Assembly: GCF_024298765.1 (NCBI RefSeq)
Contig: NZ_CP101210.1
DNA from: Escherichia coli
Lineage (GTDB): Bacteria > Pseudomonadota > Gammaproteobacteria > Enterobacterales > Enterobacteriaceae
Direction: 5' to 3' (one strand)
Length of the DNA: 64,000 nt
Of the stretch, positions 8,100 through 16,686 are shown one piece after another. The notes beneath the pieces were generated by a model. It searched no databases and was not told where the DNA came from. It saw only the letters and a list, made by a program, of their open reading frames with translations. The number at the start of each line of letters is the position of its first letter. Positions within the stretch are counted from its first letter, which is position 1. Position numbers and translations under genes: made by a program.

Positions 8100-9152
8100 T
8101 TATTCTGTTGGATCAGGAATGCCCAGTGTTGTATTCAGACGTCCACGAGACTTATTAAAGATCTTATTGCCATTTTCACGTCCTGCCCGACGGCGTCGCT
8201 GTTCTTCAGACGGTAACGCGCTTTCTTCGCAGCAAATCTCACTACAACAACCTTTGTATTTTTCCGCACATACTGGACACTGAATAAAAAGCAGGTGGCA
8301 GCCATCATTTTTACAGTTGGTATGGCTGTCGCACGGCGCACCGCACTGGTGGCAATGCGCGATAATCTCATCAGAGATACGTTCGCCCATCCGCTCGTCA
8401 AAAACAAAATTTTTGCCAATAAAACGTACCGGTAAACCCTGCTCGCGCGCCTTGCGGGCGTATTCAATAATTCCGCCCTCGATATGCCAGACTTTATTGA
8501 ATCCGTTATGTTTCATCCAGGCACTGGCCTTTTCACAACGAATGCCGCCGGTGCAGTACATAACGATTTTTTTATCTTTATGTGCCTGCATCATCTCGAC
8601 TGCTTTTGGCAGCTGCTCACGGAAGGTATCTGCCGGAATTTCCAGCGCGTTTTCAAAGTGCCCCACTTCATACTCATAGTGGTTACGCATGTCGATAAAC
8701 AATGCATCGGGATCGTCAAGCATGGCGTTCACTTCCGCCGCTTGCAGATACTCACCCACATTGCTGGCATCAAAGTGAGGATCGTTAATACCGTCGGCAA
8801 CGATACGATCACGGACCTTCATGCGCAGTACCCAGAAGGATTTCCCGTCATCATCCAACGCGATATTCAGGCGTAAGCCCTCTAAAGCCGGGTCGAAGGC
8901 ATAAAGCTGCGCGCGAAATGTTTCAACATTGCTCGCAGGTACGCTGATTTGCGCGTTAATGCCCTCATGCGCCAGATACACTCGCCCAAAAACATCCAGC
9001 GCGGTAAACAGCTGATATAAAGCGTCACGGGTCGCCTTAGGATCGGCGATGTGGAAGTACTTATAAAACGAAATGGTGGTTCGCGGTTCGCTCTCAGCCA
9101 ACATTTTGGCTTTTAACGCGTCGTTGGAAATGCGGTTGTGTAACACTGGCAT
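8100..9152 (-). CDS. trhO: tRNA uridine(34) hydroxylase TrhO / rhodanese-domain protein YceA (350 aa)
   Basis: ORF 8100..9206. The internal start gives [26 protein letters not shown]... The protein has a rhodanese CTGGIRCEK loop and a Cys-rich C-terminus. Confidence 0.92.
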
Positions 9153-9376
9153 GGTGTACGGTTCCTGCGAGATGGGAAAGTAAAAATCCGCGGCATGATA
9201 TAGCAATTATCGATAATTAACATCCACACATTTTACGCTACATTTGCGCATTAAAAATTATTTGTTATTTACAAGCGCGGCAATTTCGCCCAGTCTTCAG
9301 CCACAAATTTTGGTTGCGGGCGAAAAAATGCGACAATACATACAATTGCCCGAATAGGTTGAAAAACAGGATTGAT

Positions 9377-10297
9377 ATGACGAATCTACCCAAGTTCTCC
9401 ACCGCACTGCTTCATCCGCGTTATTGGTTAACCTGGTTGGGTATTGGCGTACTTTGGTTAGTCGTGCAATTGCCCTACCCGGTTATCTACCGCCTCGGTT
9501 GTGGATTAGGAAAACTTGCGTTACGTTTTATGAAACGACGCGCAAAAATTGTGCATCGCAACCTGGAACTGTGCTTCCCGGAAATGAGCGAACAAGAACG
9601 CCGTAAAATGGTGGTGAAGAATTTCGAATCCGTTGGCATGGGACTGATGGAAACTGGCATGGCGTGGTTCTGGCCGGACCGCAGAATCGCCCGCTGGACG
9701 GAAGTGATCGGCATGGAACACATTCGTGACGTGCAGGCGCAAAAACGCGGCATCCTGTTAGTTGGCATCCATTTTCTGACACTGGAGCTTGGTGCGCGGC
9801 AGTTTGGTATGCAGGAACCGGGGATTGGCGTTTACCGCCCGAACGATAATCCACTGATTGACTGGCTACAAACCTGGGGCCGTTTGCGCTCAAATAAATC
9901 GATGCTCGACCGCAAAGATTTAAAAGGCATGATTAAAGCCCTGAAAAAAGGCGAAGTGGTCTGGTACGCACCGGATCATGATTACGGCCCGCGCTCAAGC
10001 GTTTTCGTCCCGTTGTTTGCCGTTGAGCAGGCTGCGACCACAACCGGAACCTGGATGCTGGCACGGATGTCCGGCGCATGTCTGGTGCCCTTCGTTCCAC
10101 GCCGTAAGCCAGATGGCAAAGGGTATCAGTTGATTATGCTGCCGCCAGAGTGTTCTCCGCCGCTGGATGATGCCGAAACTACCGCCGCGTGGATGAACAA
10201 AGTGGTCGAAAAATGCATCATGATGGCACCAGAGCAGTATATGTGGTTACACCGTCGCTTTAAAACACGCCCGGAAGGCGTTCCTTCACGCTATTAA
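9377..10297 (+). CDS. lpxL: Lipid A biosynthesis lauroyltransferase (306 aa)
   Basis: The internal ATG of ORF 9314..10297 gives [27 protein letters not shown]..., recognised as LpxL/HtrB. Confidence 0.95.
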
Positions 10298-10468
10298 ATC
10301 TCCCATGCCGGATGCTTCAGAAGGGTATCCGGCATTACCACAGCAAATCCCCCTGATTTAGCGATAAAAGCTCTCTGGATTGCGCCCCCTGGAAGTCGGG
10401 CGCATAATTAGTGTGCTTATCTTTTCTTCTTATGTTCACCGCGCCTGGCGCACCAACAGCGGATTGCT

Positions 10469-10650
10469 ATGTCACCCTGTGAAAATGACACCCCTATAAA
10501 CTGGAAACGAAACCTGATCGTCGCCTGGCTAGGCTGTTTTCTTACCGGTGCCGCCTTCAGCCTGGTAATGCCCTTCTTACCCCTCTACGTTGAGCAGCTT
10601 GGCGTTACCGGCCACTCCGCCCTGAATATGTGGTCCGGTATTGTCTTCAG
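10469..10650 (+). pseudogene. mdtG: mdtG 5' fragment (codons 1 to about 61) cut by an insertion
   Basis: [62 protein letters not shown] is the MdtG N-terminus. The frame then reads MGP* in foreign sequence, with the stop at 10664-10666. Confidence 0.93.
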
Positions 10651-10672
10651 TATAATGGGTCCCTAAACACAT
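10628..10672. other. attL junction of the mdtG-borne element
   Basis: The sequence reads host ...ggtattgtcttc, then AG, then element tataatgggtccctaaacac. The arm TCCCTAAACAC (10660-10670) is the inverted partner of GTGTATTTAGGGA at 14933-14945. Confidence 0.75.
10651..10656 (+). promoter_or_regulatory. Consensus -10 hexamer TATAAT at the extreme left end of the element, upstream of the recombinase gene
   Basis: TATAAT lies 34 nt upstream of the ATG at 10690. No good -35 is visible in either the integrated or the reconstructed circular context. Confidence 0.3.
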
Positions 10673-10689
10673 CATTTTAGGTATTGAAT

Positions 10690-12219
10690 ATGAGACGGGC
10701 AATCAGCTACATCAGATTTTCAAGTGAACGACAACTAAAAGGGGACTCTGTACGCAGACAATCTAAGCTGGTCACTGACTGGCTTGATAAGAACCCTGAG
10801 TTTTACTTGGATTCATCCTTGAGCTTTAAAGATTTGGGGAAAAGTGCTTTTAGTGGTAAGCACTTGAAAGGTGGCTTAGGTGACTTTTTAACCGCTATCG
10901 AGAAAGGGCTTGTTAAAGCTGGTGATACACTACTAATCGAGAGTTTAGACCGTCTCTCACGTCAGGATATTGATATTGCTTCTGAGCTATTACGTCGTAT
11001 CTTAAGGGCTGGTGTAGATATAGTCACACTGAGCGATGGTGAACATTACACACGAGAAAGTTTAAAAGACCCGTTATCCCTGATTAAAAGCATTCTGATA
11101 ATGCAGCGGGCGCATGAGGAAAGTCTGAGGAAGTCTGAGCGTGTCCAAGCTGCATGGAACCGTAAAAAAGAACTCATCTCCGAAGGTATCAAGGTATCTA
11201 GGCGTTGTCCTGCATGGTTAAGGCTGAATGATGACCGTCGAACATTCACTATCATCCCCGATAAAGTGGAAGTTGTTAAACGAGCATTTGACCTGAGATT
11301 ACAGGGTTTAAGCTTTTGGGCTATCACCAGAACTTTAAACGATGAAGGCCACTTGTCATTGAATCAATACACACCTAAACAAAAGGGATGGTCTGATACT
11401 GCTGTAAAGAAACTACTCAGAAATCGTGCTGTGATTGGATGTTTCACACCTGCTGGACGTGAAGAAGTTCAGGGTTACTACCCCGCAATAATCAGTGAGT
11501 CACTATTCTATCGAGTACAGCAACTGAACACAGGGCAATATGGTAGGGCTTCTGTATCAAGTAATCCGCTATCAGTCAACTTGTTCAGGGGTATCATCAA
11601 ATGTTCTGAGTGTGGGGCTACTATTGTTCTTGGTGGATATGCCTTAAAACGTTTTGGGATGTACAGATGCCCTAATCGTTCAGCTAACAGGTGTAGTGCA
11701 AAGGCTATCAGTCGTAAGCAAACGGATACAACTATCCTTTACATGCTCGCATTATGCGACCGTTTTGAAACTGAAAATACTGACACTATTGATAGCCTTA
11801 AATTACAGCGTGAAGATTTGCAGCGTAAAATCTCAAAAATGGCAGAACTCGCTATTGAACTCGATGACATGACAATTATCACAGAGAAATTACGTGATAT
11901 GAAGAATGCGCTATCAAAACTCAATCATGATATCGAAGAGGAAACAAAGCGGATAAAGGCCATCACAACTGGAAGCCTCAAAGATATTGACAGGACAACA
12001 AAGGAAGGGATGATAGAGACACAGCTACTTATCAAGGGCGTACTCAAAGAAATAGTTATAGATGCCGCTAAACGTCGCTGTAAAGTGACTTTTCACAACG
12101 GTAAGGTAATTGACCTACCTATAACAGAAAACCCCTCAGAGGACGTTACAGAGGCCATACAGTCGCTTTCTGAAGTCACTGAGAGGGGTTTAATAGATGT
12201 TGATGTAGTAGCGATTTAG
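10690..12219 (+). CDS. Large serine recombinase (integrase), 509 aa from the ATG
   Basis: ORF track 10684..12219. The N-terminal catalytic domain has AISYIRFSSERQ and ESLDRLSRQ motifs. It is followed by a recombinase domain, a Cys4 zinc ribbon (CSECG...CPNRSANRC) and a long coiled coil (LKLQREDLQRKISKMAELAIELDD...). Confidence 0.9.
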   Translation: MRRAISYIRFSSERQLKGDSVRRQSKLVTDWLDKNPEFYLDSSLSFKDLGKSAFSGKHLKGGLGDFLTAIEKGLVKAGDTLLIESLDRLSRQDIDIASELLRRILRAGVDIVTLSDGEHYTRESLKDPLSLIKSILIMQRAHEESLRKSERVQAAWNRKKELISEGIKVSRRCPAWLRLNDDRRTFTIIPDKVEVVKRAFDLRLQGLSFWAITRTLNDEGHLSLNQYTPKQKGWSDTAVKKLLRNRAVIGCFTPAGREEVQGYYPAIISESLFYRVQQLNTGQYGRASVSSNPLSVNLFRGIIKCSECGATIVLGGYALKRFGMYRCPNRSANRCSAKAISRKQTDTTILYMLALCDRFETENTDTIDSLKLQREDLQRKISKMAELAIELDDMTIITEKLRDMKNALSKLNHDIEEETKRIKAITTGSLKDIDRTTKEGMIETQLLIKGVLKEIVIDAAKRRCKVTFHNGKVIDLPITENPSEDVTEAIQSLSEVTERGLIDVDVVAI

Positions 12220-12263
12220 TATCTCTTATTAGGATTCACTGAGTACTTTTTAAGCTTTGAAGC

Positions 12264-12307
12264 TACCCGACCAGCGTTACTGTTAGCATTGGTGAGGTTG
12301 GTTTTTT
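12264..12307 (+). terminator. Candidate intrinsic terminator after the large recombinase gene
   Basis: The imperfect stem ACCCGACCA...TGGTGAGGT (alternatively CCGACC/GGTTGG with a G-U pair) is followed by TTTTTT. Confidence 0.45.
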
Positions 12308-12482
12308 CAGCTTCTTCACAAAAAAGCTTCAGAGGTCTTCTTAACCATCCGCTAAGCAGGAGAGAGGGTGGTACATGAGAAAGAACCCTCACTTCTAAAA
12401 AGATTTTTTAGCTATTTTGCTTAAAACCATATCAAAAGATACATTTTATTGATTCAGGTCAAAGACAAAAGCATTGACAAAA

Positions 12483-12580
12483 TGGTAAAATTGTTCACAT
12501 GACCTTACTTAACAGACTTTTTAAGAGCTTTTGAGAAGCTTGTTGAACAGACACTCTTTCTGGAGTGTTGTCTTTTACTT
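12483..12580 (+). ncRNA. Hypothetical sRNA-like transcription unit of about 80 nt (promoter to terminator)
   Basis: An extended -10 TGGTAAAAT (12483-12491) is followed by the terminator-like hairpin ACAgACACTC tttctg GAGTGTTGT and CTTTTACTT (12547-12580). This is a prediction from sequence only. Confidence 0.2.
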
Positions 12581-12934
12581 AAGAGGTTTGTTTAGATAAC
12601 TCTCAAGGCATCTCTTAAGAATCACTGTTAAGGTGATACTCTCCCTTCGGGTTATATCGTATCTCTTCTCCCGTTAGACAGTTTTTCCTAGCAACTTCAT
12701 AGTTATCTGTCAAGTGCCTTTGAAGATTCCATCAAGACCTCTGAATCTGACCTGATATAGATGCTGTGAAGGCATATTCTCTAGGTCTGTGTAGCTTACT
12801 TAGTGGGAAGAGAGGGATATAGTGACCATAGGGGAACCCCTCCTGTTAAAAAGACTACTTAGAAGTCTGAGACTTTAGTAAAATCTGTGAATATAGCTTC
12901 TCAGACGCTCTGTAACGCATTCTAAGCGATTTTA

Positions 12935-12953
12935 CCACCTTATTTTAAGGTGG
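12935..12953. other. Perfect 7-bp hairpin CCACCTT-atttt-AAGGTGG
   Basis: Read directly from the sequence. It is immediately followed by the second copy of GGGTGGTACAT (12952-12962). Confidence 0.6.
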
Positions 12954-13206
12954 GTGGTACATCCCTATAGGTTACCCTAAAAATGGGGTTAAAACTCGCT
13001 ACAGAGCTTTCTATGAGGCTTGGTAGAGTTGCATAAATTTTACACAACACTTATTCAGCTTCTAAATTTTTTTATAAAAAATCGTAGTAACCCCTCTACA
13101 TTCCCCTTCACCGATAATCTTCAAAAATATCTATCACAGGTCTATACCTGCTAAGTACCCGTCACTACGCCTAAGTGGTCCCCTTTGCAAAATTTTAAAA
13201 TATCTA

Positions 13207-13233
13207 TTGACTTTTTATGTGAACTGTTATAAA
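13207..13233 (+). promoter_or_regulatory. Candidate sigma-70 promoter reading toward the small recombinase
   Basis: TTGACT (13207-13212), a 15-nt spacer, and the extended -10 TGtTATAAA (13225-13233). Confidence 0.4.
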
Positions 13234-13303
13234 GACCGCTCCATCTCTTAGGCATACCGTTATAGCATACTAAAAAGGTATAGCTAACCCCCTGTAAAAA
13301 CCA

Positions 13304-13345
13304 TACCGATTAGCCTTGTAAAACACTTTATCGGTACATTATACT
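13304..13345 (+). promoter_or_regulatory. Inverted repeat overlapping the proximal promoter of the small recombinase (res-like or operator candidate)
   Basis: TACCGAT (13304-13310) and ATCGGTA (13330-13336) are separated by 19 nt. They overlap TTGTAA (13316-13321), an 18-nt spacer and TATACT (13340-13345). A related ATACC-N18-GGTAT lies at 13254-13281. Confidence 0.4.
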
Positions 13346-13380
13346 CAACTCATCAAATGAGTAAGGCAAATGAGTATATT

Positions 13381-13926
13381 ATGGCTAACATTGGTTATAT
13401 CCGAGTTTCATCAATCCAGCAGATTACAGACCGTCAACTTGAAGGGGTCGTACTGGATAAGATATTTACTGATAAAGCATCTGGGAAGAATACAGACCGT
13501 CCACAACTAAAGGCTATGCTCGATTATGTTCGTGAAGGTGATGTTATCCATGTACACGACTTGTCACGTTTAGGGCGCTCTACCGTGGATGTATTAACGC
13601 TGGTGGATAAACTTTCACAGAAAGGTATCAAGGTTCACTTTCACAAAGAAGGTCTGATAACTGGTGACGATAACCCCACGTCTAAGATGATTCTCACAAT
13701 CTTTTCAGCAGTGGCTGAAGCTGAACGTAAAATGATGCTTGAGCGTCAACGAGAAGGCTATGAAGCTGCTAAAGCTGCTGGTCGTGTAGTTGGAAGGGGT
13801 AACGGTAAAGCGGTTGACAGAGAAGGTATTAAAGCTGCTCTTGCTGCTGGTGGTTCAATCGCTAAAGTAGCCGCTCAATTCAACGTTGCCAAGTCAACTG
13901 TACAGCGTATTAAAGCTGAAGATTAA
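13381..13926 (+). CDS. Small serine recombinase of the resolvase/invertase family (181 aa; alternative start at 13357 gives 189 aa)
   Basis: MANIGYIRVSSIQQ carries the catalytic Ser. The protein also has DLSRLGRS and AERKMMLERQREG motifs and a C-terminal HTH (SIAKVAAQFNVAKSTVQRI). The layout matches gamma-delta/Tn3 resolvase and Hin/Gin. Confidence 0.9.
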   Translation: MANIGYIRVSSIQQITDRQLEGVVLDKIFTDKASGKNTDRPQLKAMLDYVREGDVIHVHDLSRLGRSTVDVLTLVDKLSQKGIKVHFHKEGLITGDDNPTSKMILTIFSAVAEAERKMMLERQREGYEAAKAAGRVVGRGNGKAVDREGIKAALAAGGSIAKVAAQFNVAKSTVQRIKAED

Positions 13927-13939
13927 GTCAGGAAATACA

Positions 13940-14623
13940 TTAGATTTTTCTTCCAAATAAACTTGGGAGATTCTTACGGTTTCTTGCTTGCATCATTATT
14001 TCTGGGCTAACAAGTTTTTTTAATTCGCTTCTGTACTCATCAATAGAACACTCATCCGCAACAAGTTTTGAAATCAGGTCTTCAATAGACATAACATCTT
14101 GTTGCAGGAAATCAAGTTCACGAGACAAGTGCTTTTTTTGATTCTCTAACTTTCCTATCTCAGCATTTAAGTTATCTACATCTGTCGCCAATTTCTCTGC
14201 CTGAGATTTCAAATTACTTGTATCTTCTTTTTCTCTTTCGATAAGGTTTTTTTGTTTCTCAATCTTCAACTTTGACGTCAGTCTAGCTGACTCTTCAAGA
14301 TTTTCAGCTTCTACTTTTTGTCTTGCTCGCCATGCGGTTGCCTTGATTTGAAGTAGTGTTACAAGGTTGCTGAAGTAAGGGAAAAAGGTCGCCAAAATGA
14401 ACCCTAGCCCTACGGGATAGCATAATGTTTTTAGATAGAAGTCTTCCGTCGATGTGATTTGTTGAATACGAGTAACAACCGAAGCCTCACTAAGACACAT
14501 GATAGCAATGCTTTTCCAGTTAAATCCCACCCATGACAAAATGATGTAGCCCCATAAAGGGTTAGCTACTCGTTCCTTCAACGCCTGCTTAACTGATTCC
14601 GTGATACTTTCTTCACTACTCAC
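13940..14623 (-). CDS. Hypothetical protein with two TM segments and a coiled coil (227 aa)
   Basis: The GTG start is preceded by GGAG 8 nt upstream. Hydrophobic segments are PLWGYIILSWVGFNWKSIAIMCL and LCYPVGLGFILATFFPYFSNLVTLL. A charged heptad-like region of about 110 aa follows (EAENLEESARLTSKLKIEKQKNLIEREKED...). I do not recognise the family. Confidence 0.7.
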   Translation of the reverse strand: MSSEESITESVKQALKERVANPLWGYIILSWVGFNWKSIAIMCLSEASVVTRIQQITSTEDFYLKTLCYPVGLGFILATFFPYFSNLVTLLQIKATAWRARQKVEAENLEESARLTSKLKIEKQKNLIEREKEDTSNLKSQAEKLATDVDNLNAEIGKLENQKKHLSRELDFLQQDVMSIEDLISKLVADECSIDEYRSELKKLVSPEIMMQARNRKNLPSLFGRKI

Positions 14624-14893
14624 AATTACTGCTCCATAGAAAACTCTGGTTTGAGAAATTTTAATGCGAATCCAATCAGTTAGATAGACCTGTAAATAGC
14701 AATTTTATAGAAGTCGAGAGAGGGATGACTAACACCCTGCATAGTTTCCTGAAAAGAGACTTCGCATATTATCTATATATTTCAATAAGTTATGCTAAAA
14801 AGGAACTATACCAATACTGCATAGATTCTGCGTAAAACTGCTTGGATACTTGGAAATCCACCATTAAATTGCATAGTCATTCACCTGATAAAG

Positions 14894-14908
14894 CCTGTTA
14901 TTAACAGG
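14894..14908. other. Perfect 15-bp palindrome CCTGTTATTAACAGG near the right end of the element
   Basis: Read directly from the sequence. It is nested within TCACCTG (14881-14887) and CAGGTGA (14905-14911). Confidence 0.6.
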
Positions 14909-14932
14909 TGATAGGATTCGGATGTTCTCATA

Positions 14933-14980
14933 GTGTATTTAGGGAATTAATATCAGCATTACATTTTTATTTTCGGCCAT
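14933..14980. other. attR junction of the mdtG-borne element
   Basis: The sequence reads element GTGTATTTAGGGAATTAATATC, then AG, then host cattacatttttattttcggcc, which resumes MdtG as (S)[15 protein letters not shown]. Confidence 0.75.
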
Positions 14981-16001
14981 CGCCTCACCGTTTTGGGGTG
15001 GACTCGCCGACCGTAAAGGCCGAAAACTCATGCTATTACGCTCTGCCCTCGGCATGGGCATCGTGATGGTGTTGATGGGACTGGCACAAAATATCTGGCA
15101 GTTTTTGATCCTGCGGGCGCTTCTTGGGTTACTTGGCGGATTTGTCCCCAACGCTAATGCTCTTATCGCCACACAAGTACCGCGTAATAAAAGCGGCTGG
15201 GCGCTGGGTACGCTCTCCACAGGCGGCGTTAGTGGTGCGTTGCTCGGCCCAATGGCTGGCGGCCTGCTCGCCGATAGCTACGGCTTACGTCCGGTATTCT
15301 TTATTACCGCCAGTGTGCTCATACTCTGCTTTTTCGTCACCCTGTTCTGCATCAGAGAAAAATTCCAGCCGGTCAGCAAAAAAGAGATGCTGCACATGCG
15401 GGAAGTGGTGACATCACTTAAAAACCCGAAACTGGTACTCAGCCTGTTTGTCACCACGTTAATCATCCAGGTGGCGACAGGCTCAATTGCCCCCATTCTG
15501 ACGCTGTATGTCCGCGAACTGGCGGGTAACGTCAGTAACGTCGCCTTTATCAGTGGCATGATCGCCTCGGTGCCAGGCGTGGCGGCTCTGCTAAGCGCAC
15601 CACGACTCGGCAAACTTGGCGATCGAATCGGACCCGAAAAGATCCTGATTACAGCGCTGATCTTTTCTGTACTGCTGTTGATCCCAATGTCTTACGTTCA
15701 GACGCCATTGCAACTTGGGATTTTACGTTTTTTGCTCGGTGCCGCCGATGGTGCACTACTCCCCGCCGTACAGACACTGTTGGTTTACAACTCGAGCAAC
15801 CAGATCGCCGGGCGTATCTTCAGCTATAACCAATCGTTTCGTGATATTGGCAACGTTACCGGACCATTGATGGGAGCAGCGATTTCAGCGAACTACGGTT
15901 TCAGAGCGGTATTTCTCGTCACCGCTGGCGTCGTGTTATTCAACGCAGTCTATTCATGGAACAGTCTACGTCGTCGTCGAATACCCCAGGTATCGAACTG
16001 A
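14957..16001 (+). pseudogene. mdtG: mdtG 3' fragment (codon 61 to the stop)
   Basis: The frame reads [38 protein letters not shown]... and runs to the stop at 16001. ORF-track entry 15030..16001 is its internal-Met portion. Confidence 0.93.
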
Positions 16002-16083
16002 TTTTTCGCCTTTCATACTTGCAAAAGCGGAGAATCAGCTATCCTTTTCCCTGAAACCTCATCAACTCAAAGGGAGAATCGTG

Positions 16084-16458
16084 ATGACCATGTACGCAAC
16101 GCTTGAAGAAGCCATTGACGCTGCACGCGAAGAATTTCTTGCAGACAACCCCGGCATCGACGCCGAAGATGCGAATGTGCAACAGTTCAATGCCCAAAAA
16201 TACGTTTTGCAGGACGGCGACATCATGTGGCAAGTTGAGTTTTTTGCCGACGAAGGGGAAGAAGGTGAATGTTTACCTATGCTTAGCGGTGAAGCCGCGC
16301 AAAGTGTTTTTGATGGCGACTATGATGAGATAGAGATACGCCAGGAGTGGCAGGAAGAGAATACATTACATGAATGGGACGAGGGGGAATTTCAGCTTGA
16401 GCCACCGCTGGATACCGAGGAAGGACGCGCAGCAGCTGATGAGTGGGATGAACGTTAA
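16084..16458 (+). CDS. msyB: Acidic protein MsyB (124 aa)
   Basis: MTMYATLEEAIDAAREEFLADNPGIDAEDANVQQ... is highly acidic and recognised as MsyB. Confidence 0.93.
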   Translation: MTMYATLEEAIDAAREEFLADNPGIDAEDANVQQFNAQKYVLQDGDIMWQVEFFADEGEEGECLPMLSGEAAQSVFDGDYDEIEIRQEWQEENTLHEWDEGEFQLEPPLDTEEGRAAADEWDER

Positions 16459-16686
16459 TCACTCATACGGGCCATGATGAATGTCGATCGGCAGCAGTAA
16501 AGTATCGAAAACCAGGGAGAATGGCAGATCAAGGATCGTGACGTAACGCCAGGCGGAGTCACGCACGTCCCATTGCACACCGGGATAATATTGGTTGCCA
16601 TGCCCCTGCCCCGGTATAGTGCGACTAATGATGCTGCCACAGCCACTCAGCAAGGTCACCATTATGCTCATCACAATTAAACGCAT
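16459..16686 (-). CDS. yceK: Lipoprotein YceK (75 aa)
   Basis: MRLIVMSIMVTLLSGC contains a lipobox. Recognised as YceK. Confidence 0.9.
   Translation of the reverse strand: MRLIVMSIMVTLLSGCGSIISRTIPGQGHGNQYYPGVQWDVRDSAWRYVTILDLPFSLVFDTLLLPIDIHHGPYE

Follow-up and report, generated by a model that had tools for sequence, protein, structure and literature searches.

A gene-free core between two serine recombinase genes in Escherichia coli as a candidate mimic of the packaging region of Ounavirinae phages

The element and its gene-free core

The stretch of Escherichia coli DNA analysed here (the window; 64,000 nucleotides of contig NZ_CP101210.1, assembly GCF_024298765.1) carries an integrated element of 4,302 bp, and our subject is the gene-free core of this element at window 12220-13356, its folded units and its relation to the genome ends of Ounavirinae phages. 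The core is flanked by the genes for a large and a small serine recombinase, which together with a coiled-coil protein make up the three open reading frames (ORFs) of the element in a Pfam scan. Both junctions of the element show a TCAG core, with imperfect terminal inverted repeats CCCTAAACAC and GTGTATTTAGGG. The borders of the modules given below come from a locus-by-locus comparison of related islands, which are cited by their L numbers.

10651-14952: integrated element of 4,302 bp within the 5' part of mdtG (comparison with the empty site in K-12-type genomes)
10684-12219, + strand: large serine recombinase gene, the integrase of the element (Pfam Resolvase, Recombinase and Zn_ribbon_recom)
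12220-12310, + strand: 3' flank of the large recombinase gene (12220-12315 is 96% identical to L016 5-100)
12306-12412, + strand: remnant of an upstream non-coding unit, unit Z (matches to L007, L010 and L008)
12394-12851, + strand: block A, which includes the promoter-like element and a folded unit of about 350 nt at 12497-12850
12462-12491, + strand: promoter-like element, AAGACA, an 18-nt spacer and the extended -10 TGgTAAAAT (promoter scan)
12852-13028, + strand: block B, exchangeable cassette of 175 nt with the hairpin CCACCTT/AAGGTGG
13029-13234, + strand: block C, homologue of the phage concatemer-junction segment across one genome terminus
13140-13170, + strand: candidate site for cleavage or recognition by terminase, at the place where the boundary of the phage terminal repeat aligns
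13209-13356, + strand: promoter-like sites and leader of the small recombinase gene (TTGACT at 13209; TTGTAA, 18 nt, TATACT at 13316-13345; promoter scan)
13357-13926, + strand: small serine recombinase gene of resolvase/invertase type (Pfam Resolvase and HTH_7; annotation in strain 104), with the start placed at 13381 by RefSeq
14679-14942, strand not assigned: conserved non-coding right end with three TGCATAG words, GAGAGAGGGAT and the palindrome CCTGTTATTAACAGG

An earlier sequence-only reading of the stretch had described the core as free of ORFs of at least 60 aa, with which our ORF scan agrees, and as making up more than a quarter of the element, the actual figure being 26% of 4,302 bp. 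The 17 codons it gave for the longest ATG ORF need correction to 34, on the minus strand at 13151-13255, and a 58-codon GTG ORF on the minus strand (12216-12392) crosses the left edge of the region. The GC content is 0.39-0.40. The recurrent words and hairpins that had been named were all found again in their places, including ATCTCTTA at 12221, 12610 and 13243, which are all the copies in the window (3 vs. 1.14 expected), and GGGTGGTACAT at 12366 and 12952 (0.02 expected). Some of these repeated words are strands of conserved helices, as with CUCUUA, which pairs with UAAGAG, and others are copies of TGTTAAG/CTTAACA, the word that fills the phage terminal repeat discussed below.

The left part of the core preserves traces of a larger island. 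The element in the window is a cargo-deleted derivative of a full-length island: 12220-12315 matches the 3' flank of the recombinase gene in a full island, and the cargo and most of unit Z are gone. The flank holds a terminator-like hairpin that can be read from the sequence (CCGACC at 12267-12272 with GGTTGG at 12296-12301, followed by T6). Unit Z measures about 370 nt in full-length islands, and its remnant in the window consists of a 5' piece fused to the 3' terminal hairpin (the GAGGGT-N15-ACCCTC hairpin of the sequence-only reading) and an A/U hairpin; 12306-12363 matches L007 4001-4059 and L010 3719-3776, and 12352-12404 matches the alternative 3' end that block A has in L008. Between unit Z and block A, only short purine-rich and pyrimidine-rich words are shared, and the covariance model of the block A 5' domain returned no second copy.

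Block B is about 95% identical among its carriers, and elsewhere it is absent or replaced by an sRNA-like cassette or by an HNH-AP2 gene; full-length islands contain a paralogue of it, 70% identical, just upstream of a 102-aa ORF. As a structured RNA, block B was dropped as a candidate (RNAalifold -13 kcal/mol, little covariation). Block C comprises an A/T palindrome (13064-13082), AAAAATATCT and CCCCTTTGCAAAATTTTAAAATATC, and the interval 13029-13920, which spans block C, the leader and the small recombinase gene, is 88-91% identical in islands with the same recombinase (L003, L007). The right end, with its 15-bp palindrome CCTGTTATTAACAGG at 14893-14907, is 76-85% identical in all islands, whatever their recombinase type; a weak match to the Rfam family NRON at 14679-14942 was judged spurious.

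Conservation and folding of the core

The region matches 541 of 5,426 complete E. coli genomes (about 10%) and is annotated in none of them, the short 4.3-kb form being limited to 13-14 genomes. Shigella sonnei, E. albertii, Citrobacter and Salmonella have relatives as well, and an exact-pattern scan of one genome per species gave, among the matches listed, only E. albertii. At default thresholds, blastn of the region found no match in the phage collection and none in 72,556 plasmids. The most informative relative is a sister mini-element (L002) between tonB and yciI, whose core is 82% identical to that of the window over 920 nt and has the same internal junctions. The genes that flank the core in L002 have no DNA similarity to their counterparts in the window, and at the protein level the large recombinases are 32% and the small ones 31% identical. 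Since the core keeps 82% identity while the recombinases fall to 31-32%, the non-coding core is, in these comparisons, the most conserved part of the element.

Most relatives are islands of 11-12 kb at yecE, tonB/yciI, ymdF/rutG and other sites, whose layout has genes for a large serine recombinase, a Dit-like baseplate protein and a tape-measure protein, several small unassigned ORFs and one small HNH gene, with about 2 kb of gene-free DNA and, in many cases, a gene for a small recombinase. The tape-measure and Dit-like assignments are backed by both Pfam and PHROGs. Proteins of Ounavirinae (Felix O1-like phages, Suspvirus, Mooglevirus) share about 70% identity with the Dit-like baseplate protein, whose gene adjoins the tape-measure gene in the same order as gp016-gp017 of SUSP2. 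Scans of the window and island ORFs with Pfam, PHROGs and NCBIfam gave no terminase, capsid, replication or relaxase domain, with several small ORFs left unassigned. Full-length islands (L006 1781-12814; L013; L075-L078) are inserted at several sites on the chromosomes of E. coli, Shigella sonnei, Citrobacter and Salmonella.

Among the islands, block A is 345 to 420 nt long, and its lengths fall into the three modulo-3 classes with 18, 17 and 12 sequences, a spread over all classes that excludes a coding sequence. Together with the conservation described above and the base-pair covariation described below, this strongly supports the view of the sequence-only reading that the region is conserved for a role other than encoding protein. 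The promoter-like element ahead of the folded unit is nearly invariant in all 12 of 12 aligned sequences and is kept in altered form in Citrobacter; about 50 further variants carry it as well, these having been retrieved with the element itself as the search pattern. Its TGnTAAGAT part doubles as a variant of the phage word TGTTAAGAT.

The folded unit of block A is made up of the following parts.

12495-98/12822-25, + strand: helix P1 (RNAalifold consensus and pair counts, as for the next three helices)
12503-06/12813-16, + strand: helix P2
12508-15/12625-32, + strand: helix P3
12669-75/12802-08, + strand: helix P5
12517-12620, + strand: long irregular hairpin (RNAalifold consensus)
12635-12663, + strand: UNCG-tetraloop hairpin GAUAC...C(UUCG)G...GUAUC, with three stem alleles
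12680-12795, + strand: allelic, variable domain (locus comparison)

On the + strand, 12497-12845 folds with -102.6 kcal/mol (z = -2.63, with none of 100 shuffles as good), whereas the minus strand of the same interval gives z = -0.48. The strand specificity expected of a structured RNA is thus seen both in the fold z-scores and in the many conserved G-U pairs. The stem of the UUCG hairpin occurs as three alleles that are all perfectly paired (GAUAC/GUAUC, GAACC/GGUUC and GUAAC/GUUAC), and in a C. koseri island the loop has changed to C(UCCG)G. Since the 3' domain of block A exists as three alleles that are not alignable with one another, its interior was cut out for the closing helices and only the 5' domain was modelled. 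Without the allelic interior, the RNAalifold consensus of 45 distinct sequences reaches -50 kcal/mol with 56 pairs, 94.5% of them canonical.

The covariance model of the 5' domain (R1, window 12505-12666) finds exactly one copy per island and scores the block A of the window at 139.6 bits. Applied to 47 distinct sequences, it shows pairing in 95.3% of cells and a change on both sides in 12 of 40 pairs; cells changed on both sides number 86, as compared to 23 +/- 4.4 in shuffles, and the covariation score of 0.204 exceeds the 0.118 +/- 0.005 of shuffles (none of 500 reaches 0.204) and the 0.04-0.10 of slid controls. Covariation among aligned homologues had been suggested by the sequence-only reading as a check on its structured-RNA option, and compensatory change above both kinds of control is what the alignment gives. 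In the closing helices P1, P2 and P5 the variation is mostly one-sided. The structured-RNA option is thus supported at 12497-12850, where a + strand-specific folded unit follows a conserved promoter-like element. That at least block A is also transcribed is a prediction from this promoter-like element, the UNCG loop and the strand specificity of the fold.

Searches for known RNA families gave little. With the Rfam 15 covariance models at permissive thresholds, window 9000-16500 yielded only the spurious NRON match outside the region, and three full-length islands yielded only matches of the host REP type outside the islands. ARAGORN reported no tRNA or tmRNA, and a promoter and terminator scan of block A in the window showed no terminator that would close the unit.

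Homology to phage genome ends and its interpretation

In Ounavirinae, a 1.6-kb ORF-free stretch between convergent gene blocks is conserved in 295 phage records. This stretch is essentially unannotated, as in Shigella phage Sf14 (L081 1937-3535) and FelixO1 (AF320576 12306-13897), and it holds a direct terminal repeat, dense TTAACA arrays and a CCCUUUCGGG hairpin that resembles the UUCG hairpin of the islands. The link between the core and this region becomes visible only with blastn at E <= 10 and with profiles. At that blastn threshold, window 13113-13204 matches Ounavirinae only, in unannotated DNA, among the matches listed; nhmmer against the phage loci gives E = 3e-21 for block C and E = 3e-8 to 4e-8 for block A, and the reciprocal search with a phage profile recovers window 13050-13204 at E = 3e-7.

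The matched phage DNA includes a genome terminus. Phages D4 and SPJ41 have identical genome ends of 581 and 613 bp, respectively, with the same boundaries (GGTAGCCC... and ...AAGGGGGC), and for phage D4 direct terminal repeats were indicated by PhageTerm (PMC11737134). The boundary ...CTGCTTG/GTAGCCC of D4, Sf14, Michonne and Andreotti (the slash marks the terminus) aligns to CTGCTAA/GTACCC in the window, at about 13154-13156, and the sequence is conserved on both sides of the aligned boundary. Block A, in its first part, shows homology to the interior of the phage terminal repeat, which is densely filled with (C)TTAACA/TGTTAAG words. This repeat-filling word is the same as the recurrent CTGTTAAG/CTTAACAG word of the element, where it forms helix P3 of block A and is seen again in the block A 3' tail and in a palindrome near the right end, and 4 of the 12 copies of CTGTTAA in the 64-kb window fall in the 4.3-kb element.

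Homology to mapped phage termini, the tail genes of the islands, the absence of a terminase gene and the presence of an integrase lead us to read the ORF-free core as a satellite's copy of the terminus and packaging region of its helper, with units that are probably transcribed, and we would put the probability of this reading at roughly 55%. Two of the features by which such a mimic would be recognised are there, namely homology to the terminus region of the presumed helper and an integrase in DNA with no terminase or capsid gene of its own among the assigned ORFs (the several small unassigned ones aside). The core would then be a diverged copy of the concatemer-junction, or direct-terminal-repeat, region of virulent Ounavirinae (Felix O1-like) phages, and would serve as the cis-acting core of a phage-parasitic island, present here in its cargo-deleted 4.3-kb form. 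Upon infection by the helper, the helper terminase would recognise and cut the mimic, the cut would lead to packaging of island DNA into helper particles, and the folded units may act as transcripts or as single-strand hairpins that take part in recognition or in end formation.

Several observations weigh against this interpretation. For the window itself only block C is significant, its block A allele being too diverged for the phage profile, and the covariance-model matches in the phage repeat are weak (E 0.002-0.02). The order of modules differs as well, with A followed by C in the island and with C, the repeat array and A-like units in the phage, and no homologue of the second phage terminus was found in the window. 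The alignment behind the covariation scores was fitted to the model, and the sequences are mosaic relatives in which a small number of allele replacements accounts for many of the compensatory cells. Both the UNCG loop and the conservation of G-U pairs indicate RNA and not double-stranded DNA, which means that the folded unit may have a function of its own apart from packaging. The window element, as a deletion derivative, may also be inert.

The alternative that survives best is that block A, with its neighbours, is a free-standing gene for a regulatory non-coding RNA that, much like the CI RNA of P4, would confer immunity by keeping the island silent or would act as a sensor of the helper; we consider it unlikely, and it may coexist with a packaging role. 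The phage homology would in that case reflect a shared RNA instead of a packaging signal. Such a gene would suit the conserved extended -10 promoter-like element and the strand-specific fold with its covariation and UNCG tetraloop, and the genes downstream are often convergent, which argues that block A is not simply a leader; in other islands, moreover, the place of block B is taken by a clear sRNA-type cassette that has a strong promoter and ends in a clean terminator. In the window, however, block A is without a closing terminator and matches no Rfam family, and the alignment of block C across the phage genome terminus is left unexplained. I1, the one long complementarity that was found to join blocks A and B, is missing from the second block A allele, on which ground P4-like complementary boxes between the two blocks were rejected.

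A replication origin used with helper or host enzymes, modelled on ColE1 RNA II or on the R-loop origins of T4, seems to us considerably less probable. In such an origin, a structured transcript would prime next to an A/T-rich unwinding element and the short repeats would be initiator sites, which is in line with an island that has no recognisable replication gene, with the conserved A/T palindrome at 13064-13082, just upstream of which some islands have iteron-like TATACAGG repeats, and with the G-rich 3' part of the folded unit, followed by C-runs in block C. The iteron-like repeats are nevertheless absent from the window's version, and the alignment to mapped phage termini is the more direct clue. 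We know of no mapped origin in Ounavirinae.

More doubtful again is the notion that the core of this 4.3-kb element is an inert remnant left by deletion of an 11-kb island, and that recent descent is all that has kept it. Deletion has indeed removed most of unit Z along with the cargo (tape-measure, baseplate and HNH genes), and the rarity of the short form noted above would fit. Against this, the same short architecture with its internal junction is found at a second chromosomal site with unrelated recombinases, which argues that the short form is itself mobile, and block A still reaches its 139.6 bits against the covariance model.

An array of accessory or crossover sites for both serine recombinases, or an invertible switch, as would be suggested by the position of the region between the two recombinase genes and by the inverted block B paralogue about 3 kb away in full-length islands, deserves hardly any credence, since the core stays 82% identical while both recombinases are swapped for ones of 31-32% identity, is present in relatives without the small recombinase (L005, L008, L013), keeps its block order and orientation in every locus examined and has two block B copies that are only 70% identical. 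The accessory-site option of the sequence-only reading falls with it, and an inversion switch found no support. Its oriT option is rejected in the literal sense, as the element has no relaxase, and blastn of the core at default thresholds gave no match among the 72,556 plasmids. The broader wording of a transfer site comes close to the homology result, which would make it a phage-packaging (genome-terminus) site and not a conjugative one.

Relation to known systems and further observations

A close functional parallel to a packaging-site mimic is the concatemer junction of phage T7, in which a terminal repeat is flanked by arrays of short repeats and accompanied by pac sequences, a hairpin and a promoter nearby. 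Plasmids that carry this junction are reportedly packaged and transduced. The core resembles it as a non-coding terminal-repeat region with arrays of short words and hairpin-forming sequence, and the T7 junction acts in cis and works on another replicon. The sequences, however, are unrelated, the phages considered here are myoviruses of 86-90 kb with repeats of 581-613 bp, and the function of the present region is assigned from homology only. Satellite P4 offers a second likeness, being an integrated element without terminase that carries the packaging site of its helper (the cos of P2) and that has an RNA control element in a non-coding leader; P4 differs in having a tyrosine integrase, a temperate helper and a cohesive-end cos, and its CI RNA is about 70-80 nt long, with no match to the Rfam C4 family here.

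Satellites of virulent phages have been described as PLE in Vibrio cholerae and PICMI in Vibrionaceae (PMC9638900, PMC10803314). The present islands are likewise small, chromosomal and linked to virulent phages, PLE uses a large serine recombinase, and PICMI has a minimal gene content like that of the 4.3-kb form. As for a PLE-like satellite, we find a large serine recombinase along with tail genes and a terminus region homologous to those of Ounavirinae. Hosts, helpers and gene sets differ, and the likeness is drawn from descriptions and not from sequence; in the literature on PLE and PICMI we found no report of a terminal-repeat mimic or of a large folded non-coding unit. GOLLD, ROOL and HEARO of Rfam are similar as folded units of several hundred nt on mobile DNA with conserved helices, but no covariance-model match to them appears at E <= 1, and to our knowledge none of them is homologous to a phage terminal repeat. 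The res and enhancer sites of Tn3, gamma-delta, Hin and Gin also consist of non-coding DNA with repeated half-sites beside a resolvase or invertase gene; such sites are about 120 bp long and specific to their cognate enzyme, whereas here 840 nt are conserved while the enzyme changes or is missing.

That satellites copy the packaging site of their helper is already known. For the islands and for the non-coding region of the phages we found no published description, and the Felix O1 genome paper does not discuss the phage region. We tentatively propose, at somewhat less than even odds, that the islands form a hitherto undescribed satellite family in enterobacteria, with virulent Felix O1-like phages as helpers, a serine recombinase for integration and a core that combines a terminal-repeat mimic and a folded, transcribed RNA. 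Its members would be found in E. coli, Shigella sonnei, E. albertii, Citrobacter and Salmonella, the element in the window would be a near-minimal one with integrase, mimic, invertase-type recombinase and one further gene, and the 1.6-kb non-coding region of the phages would itself encode a structured RNA for end formation or early infection.

Felix O1-like phages are standard phages for typing, biocontrol and therapy of Salmonella, E. coli and Shigella. A chromosomal element that is carried by about a tenth of E. coli and is seemingly fixed in Shigella sonnei would, if it is a copy of their packaging region and tail genes, affect phage efficacy, resistance and gene transfer. The role of the conserved gene-free terminal region of Ounavirinae and the existence of virulent-phage satellites in E. 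coli become testable in this way, and the 4.3-kb form provides a very small natural substrate with which to define the requirements in cis.

The full-length islands show further variation around the core. An HNH-AP2 gene of homing-endonuclease type (L005 6570-7094; L013 9370-9894) stands in place of the 3' end of block A and the whole of block B in many E. coli islands, and the small HNH gene abuts the second block B copy in full-length islands. The sRNA-like cassette in the block B position (L007 4733-4935; also in L010, L011, L016 and L077) has a strong sigma-70 promoter (TTGATG, 17 nt, TGTATAAT), a GGT-rich tract that repeats about every 6 nt and a clean intrinsic terminator; its product, to which no Rfam family matches, is a candidate sRNA about 150 nt long. 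Upstream of unit Z, full-length islands (L010 3337-3522; L075 6607-6795) have an ORF of 61-62 aa with one hydrophobic helix, deleted in the window, whose predicted product resembles a small membrane peptide.

Two observations concern the element as a whole. Its insertion splits mdtG (window 14953-16001 and 10469-10650), which leaves the efflux gene, annotated as incomplete in strain 104, without its 5' part. In that strain (L001 3275-4444), a copy of ISEc52 interrupts the large recombinase gene of an otherwise identical element, the gene being intact in the window.

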